The translations under genes were made by a program, and so were the position numbers. 64,000 bases of DNA from assembly GCA_021734805.1 (NCBI GenBank), contig JAIPIG010000001.1, forward strand, positions 15,560 to 79,559, read 5' to 3'. Below, piece after piece: positions 10,057 through 10,836 of this stretch (position 1 is the first letter of the stretch; the number at the start of each line of letters is the position of its first letter). Origin of the DNA: Simkaniaceae bacterium. GTDB lineage: Bacteria; Chlamydiota; Chlamydiia; Chlamydiales; JACRBE01. The notes under the pieces were generated by a model. It ran no database searches, was not told the origin of the DNA, and was given only the letters and a program-made list of their open reading frames with translations.

Positions 10057-10836
10057 ATGTCTATAGAGCCTCGGTTTTCGCCTGACCATCAATCGCTTCA
10101 GTTTTATAAAGATAGCCGGATGATTGCCGAAGTCAAAACGAGCTCATCAGAGGCTGCATCCGGTGAATTACACAAATACATCCGCATTGATGTTAGTGGC
10201 GAACCGGCTTATCTCGATAAAGAGCTGTTCAGAGAGAAATTTTCAGTCTCGACAGCCTCTACCTCTAAAATAACAGAGCTTTTTACTTCTTTATTTAGCG
10301 CGGAAGCGGCCCCAACTATTCCTGACATCATTACCGTAGATCGCATTACTCCAATATTAGAGGACTATCAGGAAAAAAAAGCTGCATTGCTTTCTCATCC
10401 GTTTTCTCTTTATGACTCGCCACGGGGGTTTCTATCGGATAAGGAAGTTGTATTAGCTGCAGTCAAGAAGAATGGGAGCGAATTATACTTCGCATCAGAT
10501 TTATTATCACCGGTTCCTGAAGCGATTTTGACATATTCTGCACTGCATTACCGCGATCCGAGCATGAAAGAGGCGATCCAAACATTTATAGGACAAGTCT
10601 TGGAAGGGACGTTTGTCCGGTTTCGAAATGCACACAATTCTCATGCACGATTTTTAACCGATGATCAAAAAAGAATATGGGAAACCTTTTCTTCTCATAA
10701 GGATTGGATAACGAAAGAGAAGGGTACAATAGAGGTTCTCATATCCCATGGAAATACTGCACCCTATGAGTATGAAGATGGCGGAGTCGGCGTCTCGGAT
10801 AGTGGGAAGTATGAGATTAGGGCTCATGAGGTATAA
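10057..10836 (+). CDS. DUF4116-repeat protein, short internally deleted paralog of 58305-60698
   Basis: RBS AAGGAG. aa 1-150, 151-215 and 225-259 align closely with three separated blocks of the 798-aa protein. One DUF4116-like unit (DKEVVLAAVKKNGSELYFASDLL). Confidence 0.7.
   Translation: MSIEPRFSPDHQSLQFYKDSRMIAEVKTSSSEAASGELHKYIRIDVSGEPAYLDKELFREKFSVSTASTSKITELFTSLFSAEAAPTIPDIITVDRITPILEDYQEKKAALLSHPFSLYDSPRGFLSDKEVVLAAVKKNGSELYFASDLLSPVPEAILTYSALHYRDPSMKEAIQTFIGQVLEGTFVRFRNAHNSHARFLTDDQKRIWETFSSHKDWITKEKGTIEVLISHGNTAPYEYEDGGVGVSDSGKYEIRAHEV

Follow-up and report, generated by a model that had tools for sequence, protein, structure and literature searches.

A probable internally deleted paralog in a Simkaniaceae genome that lacks the core of a conserved C-terminal module

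Introduction

The genome of a member of the Simkaniaceae (an environmental chlamydia) harbors two related genes, a short gene of 259 codons (positions 10057..10836, + strand) and a long gene of 798 codons (58302..60698, + strand), which lie 48 kb apart. All positions are those of the window, i.e., the whole 64,000-nucleotide stretch of DNA that was analysed, and in which these are the two copies of their family. How did the short gene arise, and does it still serve the cell? A first-pass annotation of the same DNA viewed it as a recent deletion derivative of the long gene, three blocks of which would have been collapsed into a single open reading frame (ORF). Both proteins exceed the Pfam gathering threshold (24.9 bits) for the DUF4116 repeat (PF13475), the short one with 29.0 bits at amino acids 110-150 and the long one with 71.9 bits over two stretches (Pfam HMM). 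The literature on DUF4116 holds essentially nothing functional. Regarding gene families in general, it has been reported that the expanded families of environmental Chlamydiae (PEX/NEX) undergo birth-and-death evolution, with degraded members included (Domman et al. 2014, PMC4209131).

Results

The short gene corresponds to three colinear blocks of the long gene

Pairwise blastn aligned the two + strand genes in three colinear and ungapped nucleotide blocks with 87-91% identity, far beyond chance, and the self-comparison of the whole window agreed with this finding. The resemblance is therefore one of nucleotides, not only of proteins, and the block boundaries first proposed by eye proved right to about 10-20 nt. 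Block 1 (10046-10499 versus 58294-58747, + strand; 87.2% over 454 nt, E 4e-162) comprises the ribosome-binding region and codons 1-148, which encode an N-terminal beta domain, a linker and one DUF4116 repeat; its identity is highest in the 5' part (93-98%) and has dropped to 75% by the 3' end. Block 2 (10507-10719 versus 59763-59975, + strand; 88.7% over 213 nt, E 2e-77) encodes the first ~71 residues, which are helical, of a conserved C-terminal module. Block 3 (10731-10797 versus 60587-60653, + strand; 91.0% over 67 nt, E 1e-22) and the tail that follows it (together 10731..10836, + strand) encode the last ~35 residues of this module (HGN.APYEYEDGGVG...). Beyond block 3, the similarity persists up to the stop codon at the protein level only, with a one-codon indel, and long-protein residues 763-795 match positions 10732-10833 with 73.5% identity. 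There is no indel in the 734 aligned nt of the three blocks. The short gene keeps the N-terminus, one repeat and the HGN.APYEYEDGGVG tail.

The blocks are separated in the short gene by two brief junctions. Junction 1 (10500..10506, + strand) stands for 1008 nt (336 codons) of the long form and displays a microhomology of at most ~2 nt, while junction 2 (10720..10730, + strand) stands for 600 nt (200 codons) and is located, in the long gene, between purine-rich (GAG/GAGG-type) sequences on both sides. The register shifts, announced as ~1.0 kb and ~0.6 kb, measure 1008 nt and 600 nt to the base, and as each is a multiple of three, the frame is preserved; no frame disruption or premature stop occurs in the short ORF, and the peptides spanning the junctions read ...YFASDLLSPVPE... 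and ...TKEKGTIEVLISHG... The segment of deletion 1, present only in the long gene (58748..59755, + strand), encodes the second DUF4116 repeat and the helical linker (amino acids ~150-485), and it ends where the conserved C-terminal module begins. The segment of deletion 2, also present only in the long gene (59976..60586, + strand), encodes amino acids ~562-761. Altogether 536 of the 798 codons are gone from the short gene, and tblastn retrieved no remnant of the deleted segments elsewhere in the 64-kb window.

The 3' half of the single DUF4116 repeat of the short gene (10469-10499) has 24/31 identities with repeat 2 of the long gene (58906-58936) and 20/31 with repeat 1 (58717-58747). Because it is slightly nearer to repeat 2, the 1008-nt gap may, though on weak evidence, be composite, i.e., 189 nt lost through repeat-repeat recombination plus an 819-nt deletion.

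The duplicated unit is gene-sized and sits in a compact locus

The similarity between the two genes starts 11 nt 5' of the ATG, and no homology was found in the flanks on either side of both genes. The neighbouring ORFs, 9453-10028 and 56777-58240, belong to no Pfam or NCBIfam family and are unrelated to one another and to the long protein; therefore, the neighbours were not part of the duplication. The short gene is tightly packed (28 nt from the upstream ORF and 2 nt from the recO stop) and has a Shine-Dalgarno sequence (AAGGAG) a few nt 5' of its ATG; it is probably still translated.

Several other features of the window are worth recording. The short gene and an unannotated 191-aa ORF (9453-10028) occupy a ~2.6-kb stretch (8810-11509) bordered by tRNA-Leu (8810-8893, + strand) and by recO and tRNA-Arg (10839-11509, - strand), and no integrase is encoded within 8810-11509. 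An intergenic element of ~180 bp with terminal inverted repeats of ~21 nt (TATACCGAAATAAATTGAAGA ... TCTTCAACTCATTTCGGTATA) is present in three copies of 91-97% identity (8994-9172, + strand; 34249-34427, + strand; 41808-41983, - strand), one of which lies between tRNA-Leu and the ORF 5' of the short gene. This element looks like a MITE; it has no Rfam match, and the Rfam search of the whole window returned tRNAs only. Directly 5' of the long gene, the 487-aa ORF 56777-58240 (+ strand) has a Ser/Pro-rich, low-complexity N-terminal half and may encode another lineage-specific host-interaction protein. On the other side, an 84-nt direct repeat (97.6% identical; shared motif TTATTTTTTGTCTCGTGAC) occurs at 60708-60812 and 61523-61797; copy 1 starts immediately 3' of the long gene, and copy 2 has an insertion of ~170 nt between the shared pieces. 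Between the repeats lie a small ORF for a hydrophobic product (60933-61337, - strand) and the AT-rich DNA upstream of it, and the pair of repeats may be the footprint of an inserted cassette.

The structure of the short gene is found in a second assembly

A public short-read metagenome-assembled genome (MAG) of the Simkaniaceae (GCA_021734195.1) contains a contig (JAIPJJ010000102.1, hereafter L003) that is 100% identical to positions 10180-15498 of the window. L003 spans both deletion junctions, fused to the unique recO/hpf DNA, and the structure of the short gene is therefore not peculiar to one assembly. A second contig of this MAG is 100% identical to positions 59063-64000, and the best database match of the long protein is a contig-truncated protein of the same MAG. 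An exact-sequence look-up showed that the full-length short protein is not on record, a contig-truncated protein (P0088) being the sole entry. The longest identical run between the two copies is 68 nt long and ends at position 10235; L003 begins inside this run, at position 10180. The run thus explains, as a matter of practical relevance, why the short-read MAG breaks at both genes.

The location of both genes at contig ends in this MAG could by itself evoke a chimeric collapse of reads from the long gene. We reject this possibility, which has a negligible probability, since in every block 12% of the positions differ between the two genes, so that the short gene could not have been assembled from long-gene reads, and since L003 carries both junctions joined to unique recO/hpf DNA with 100% identity to the window.

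Deletion 2 removes the heart of a large, un-annotated C-terminal module

The C-terminal module of the long protein (amino acids 486-798; 59757..60695, + strand) has no Pfam or NCBIfam model. Compared with 1.84 billion representative proteins, these 313 residues have 1557 relatives (1050 at E<=1e-10), many of them end-to-end, counted as representative clusters at 50% identity; the relatives match the residues 1-310 of the long-gene query with E values down to 1e-72. An AF2 model of the 313 residues, based on a 68-sequence alignment, folds as one unit (pLDDT 95, pTM 0.91). The invariant residues of the module are G180, S186-C187 (GSCQ), G207, R224, Y245, Y291 and D293 (module numbering, to which 485 is added to obtain the long-protein numbering). 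All eight are present in the long protein. Six of them (G665, S671-C672, G692, R709 and Y730 of the long protein) fall in deletion 2, which leaves the short protein with Y291 and D293 alone (its Y239 and D241). As the short gene retains only module residues ~1-76 and ~278-313, it gives no end-to-end match over the ~310 residues.

The AF2 model of the short protein (pTM 0.40) agrees with this dissection: residues 1-62 form a small beta domain of high confidence (pLDDT 92-96), the repeat and the helical stub are of intermediate confidence, and the orphan tail has a pLDDT of ~50. This model had no Foldseek match below E = 0.4. The N-terminal domain is also conserved in three of the aligned relatives (P0002, P0095 and P0117).

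From these data, the first-pass proposal of an in-frame modular shrinkage describes deletion 1, which takes a repeat and a linker, but not deletion 2, which cuts through a confidently folded domain and costs six of eight invariants; the latter amounts to gutting, as opposed to a clean exchange of modules by domain shuffling. Similarly, the designation "DUF4116 gene" is right insofar as both proteins pass the Pfam threshold, but it names only two short repeats, whereas the family is defined by the un-annotated C-terminal module; DUF4116 repeats occur in 20 of the 68 members of the module family, the others having ankyrin repeats or nothing recognisable.

As regards the nature of the module, the top Foldseek PDB matches of the long C-terminal model were consistently GNATs (7n1l, 7kd7, 1bo4, 6ajm and 5zgn), including RimI-like, NatD, AAC(3), AtaT, KacT and the GNAT domain of ICL2, with weak scores (probability 0.8-1.0; E 4e-3 to 3e-2; target-normalised TM 0.3-0.48). 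Sequence searches of the PDB with the long protein and with the family profile gave no match, and none of the 68 module-family members matched the Pfam acetyltransferase models. The motif A of GNATs provides a pyrophosphate-binding loop (Q/R-x-x-G-x-G/A) between beta-4 and alpha-3. By inspection this motif is absent from the module, in which the strand 237-245 is followed by ERVYPADDPAIRKAFQEVLKEKAKAMG, and the family consensus has no Gly-rich loop. The beta-rich part of the module bears a weak resemblance to GNAT (GCN5-related N-acetyltransferase) acyltransferases in the predicted fold. The GNAT enzymes include toxins (AtaT, KacT) as well as N-terminal acetyltransferases (RimI, NatD); the module differs from them by its invariant Ser-Cys (GSCQ) and by having no visible CoA-binding motif after beta-4; as for the short gene, it is entirely devoid of the GNAT-like core. 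It is conceivable, if not likely, that the C-terminal module of the long protein belongs to a new family of Cys-dependent GNAT-fold enzymes of intracellular bacteria.

The long architecture is the rule in the family

P0002 is a protein of 985 aa encoded on another chlamydial contig, close to genes for type III secretion. Its alignment with the long protein extends over the full length of the latter, the two stretches missing from the short gene included. The long architecture was observed in all 23 other members (P0002 and 22 more) of an alignment that comprised 23 relatives and the two window proteins, and there was no other comparable short member among these 25 sequences. As all others are long, the short gene is the derived, deleted form; the alignment thus leads us to regard it, in agreement with the first-pass annotation, as a deletion derivative of a long-type gene. 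The reverse polarity, i.e., an ancestral short form and a long gene grown by two insertions, has nothing but the formal symmetry of the alignment gap in its favor. It is exceedingly improbable, in that the would-be insertions are homologous and conserved in P0002 and in all other aligned relatives and carry most of the invariant residues of the family, and we rejected it upon finding the missing segments in all 23 other relatives.

Among species-representative genomes, a scan detected 104 stretches encoding a relative. The best 80 of the 104 are overwhelmingly from Chlamydiota MAGs (Waddliaceae, Parachlamydiaceae, Rhabdochlamydia and Simkaniaceae); a few others come from MAGs of Gammaproteobacteria and Francisellaceae. 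In several Chlamydiota MAGs a single genome has at least 7-8 loci, and some of these share a contig, separated by a few kb. DUF4116 repeats are found in relatives from Chlamydiota, protists and viral metagenomes. Two other searches, of genome contigs with a three-sequence alignment and of metagenome contigs with the short protein, gave no match, the collection of genome contigs evidently not including the genome of the window itself.

The two genes are an old pair with uneven divergence

The pairwise comparison of the short and long genes by the Nei-Gojobori method gave dS 0.244, dN 0.101 and omega 0.41 over the 241 codons of the three blocks taken together; the 723 aligned nt differ by 85 substitutions. 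The corresponding values are dS 0.145, dN 0.033 and omega 0.23 for codons 1-80 of block 1; dS 0.56, dN 0.168 and omega 0.30 for codons 81-147 of block 1; dS 0.14, dN 0.117 and omega 0.85 for block 2; and dS 0.16, dN 0.114 and omega 0.70 for block 3. Neutral DNA at such divergence would still be detectable, and yet the flanks have no homology; therefore, the paralog pair is old. Taking together the overall dS of 0.24 (0.14-0.56 by segment), the 85 substitutions and the unrelated flanks, we consider the short and long genes to be an old, compacted paralog pair, and we cannot retain the term "recent" for their duplication.

The first 80 codons (10057-10296 versus 58305-58544) are markedly closer than codons 81-147, and they contain the 68-nt identical run. 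This heterogeneity of dS within block 1 is significant (0.145 versus 0.56; Fisher p = 0.003), and it points either to gene conversion of a 5' tract at a later time or to a constraint on synonymous sites or at the mRNA level.

Block 1 as a whole (omega 0.29) bears the mark of purifying selection (Fisher p = 2e-5 against neutrality), and blocks 2 and 3 (omega 0.7-0.85) do not differ from an omega of 1 (p = 0.82). The outgroup-polarised substitutions are balanced between the copies, i.e., 11 versus 6 with P0002 and roughly equal with 23 outgroups, so that the short copy shows no accelerated decay; this balance accords with a past through much of which the short copy was full-length and under constraint. 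Furthermore, the intact ORF, the in-frame deletions (both would be in frame by chance in 1/9 of cases), the absence of indels within the blocks and the strong Shine-Dalgarno sequence hint at continued selection, a hint that is weak because the ORF was still open in 6-23% of the trials of a neutral simulation.

Discussion

We propose, with a probability of about 0.8, that the short gene is an internally deleted paralog that lost its conserved C-terminal core. The proteins of its parent family have four parts: the N-terminal beta domain, which is small, then repeats (DUF4116 or others), a helical linker and the C-terminal module of ~310 residues, the core of which has a GNAT-like predicted fold. 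In the proposed sequence of events, either the long gene or a closely related paralog of the long type would first have given rise to a dispersed duplicate of gene size, from which two in-frame internal deletions would later have removed 336 and 200 codons. These deletions were most likely illegitimate (with at most microhomology) in a genome biased towards deletion. Deletion 1 would have taken out the second repeat and the linker, and deletion 2 would have excised the heart of the C-terminal module, thereby leaving an N-terminal domain, one repeat, a helical stub and an orphan tail. With the heart of the module gone, the short protein should be unable to do the job of the module. The conserved functional core, whose loss is one of the criteria for a pseudogene, has disappeared (536/798 codons and 6/8 invariants, with a tail pLDDT of ~50). 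Within this deleted-paralog explanation, decay appears somewhat likelier than a retained function of the N-terminal domain, which is the useful part of the protein, if any part is still useful.

A different view of the same gene is that it is a truncated paralog maintained for a function of its own, for example as a competitor, adaptor or regulator when the long protein is secreted or binds its target; the in-frame deletions would then have been favored by selection instead of being tolerated. We regard this as possible, though doubtful. It would account for the intact ORF with its two in-frame deletions and strong Shine-Dalgarno sequence, for the low omega of the N-terminal block (0.23-0.29) and the confident fold of its domain (pLDDT 92-96), which is also conserved in P0002, P0095 and P0117, and for a short lineage free of an excess of derived substitutions. 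However, a pairwise omega averages both lineages, so that its low value may stem from the long copy, and the low 5' divergence also affects the synonymous sites (dS 0.145 versus 0.56, p = 0.003), which a gene-conversion tract fits as well as selection does. Moreover, blocks 2 and 3 are near neutral, an ORF survives by chance in 6-23% of the simulations, and no comparable short member exists among the 25 aligned sequences. Still less likely is the specific version in which the short ORF is a selected "head-only" paralog that acts on the full-length GNAT-like protein by modulating its secretion, localisation or target engagement; if true, it would represent a built-in competitor or adaptor made by in-frame excision of an enzymatic core.

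The history of the deletions could also have been different. In a single event, a template-switching, replication-based copy would have skipped two stretches, and the copy at the recO locus would never have been full-length. Such an event, which we find unlikely, would suit a strictly gene-sized copy with no flank homology, junctions with at most microhomology and three blocks broadly alike in divergence, codons 81-147 excepted. Nothing sets it apart from sequential deletions, however; the heterogeneous dS suggests a more complex history, and the repeat of the short gene may be a hybrid of the long repeats 1 and 2 (24/31 versus 20/31 identities), which, if real, would imply an extra recombination step. 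It had been further suggested that the copies, being direct repeats, can mediate deletion or duplication of the DNA between them. They are indeed direct repeats on the + strand, 48 kb apart, and recombination between them is conceivable from their longest identical run of 68 nt. The stronger claim of a recent deletion product, with a pair of copies actively rearranging the intervening 48 kb, is improbable. The direct orientation, the 68-nt run and the break of the short-read MAG assembly exactly within this run, at position 10180, would speak for it; the dS of 0.24 and the 85 substitutions speak against it. So does the content of the interval (dnaG, RNase E/G, mutS, uvrC, a PcrA/UvrD-type helicase, recO, hpf and two tRNA genes), owing to which the loss of the DNA between the repeats should be lethal, and no variant contigs were seen, in genome and metagenome scans that returned no relatives at all.

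Returning to the internally deleted paralog as the preferred explanation, we note that the number of loci in several Chlamydiota MAGs (at least 7-8 per genome) fits birth-and-death evolution as described for PEX/NEX (PMC4209131), and we take the short gene to be a degraded member of such a birth-and-death family. Similarly to PEX/NEX (PMC4209131), the module family is multi-copy in amoeba-associated Chlamydiota and combines eukaryote-like variable repeats with a conserved module, and its members are duplicated and degraded, with the intact parts mostly under purifying selection. Unlike PEX/NEX, it has no F-box, BTB or RING, its conserved part being the un-annotated GNAT-like C-terminal domain; moreover, the window contains two copies, and the degraded member is an open in-frame ORF instead of an intergenic fragment. 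As compared with DUF4116 proteins, to which both window proteins are akin in passing the Pfam threshold, DUF4116 is here only a short repeat of the variable region (one in the short protein, two in the long one). The family occurs mainly in Chlamydiota and in a few other, likely intracellular, lineages, it is multi-copy, and it has eukaryote-like repeats; on this circumstantial evidence of taxonomy and architecture, an effector role of the family, for instance as type III secreted proteins, is plausible.

Conclusions

The history proposed here, in which a gene of an intracellular bacterium was duplicated and one copy then suffered deletions, is a commonplace one, and with the short gene the expanded families of the host-interaction type in environmental chlamydiae gain one more degraded member. 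The C-terminal module family outweighs it in interest. This family is large and multi-copy in many Chlamydiota, it merits a domain definition, and it may reasonably be put forward as a candidate new class of enzymes that target the host.
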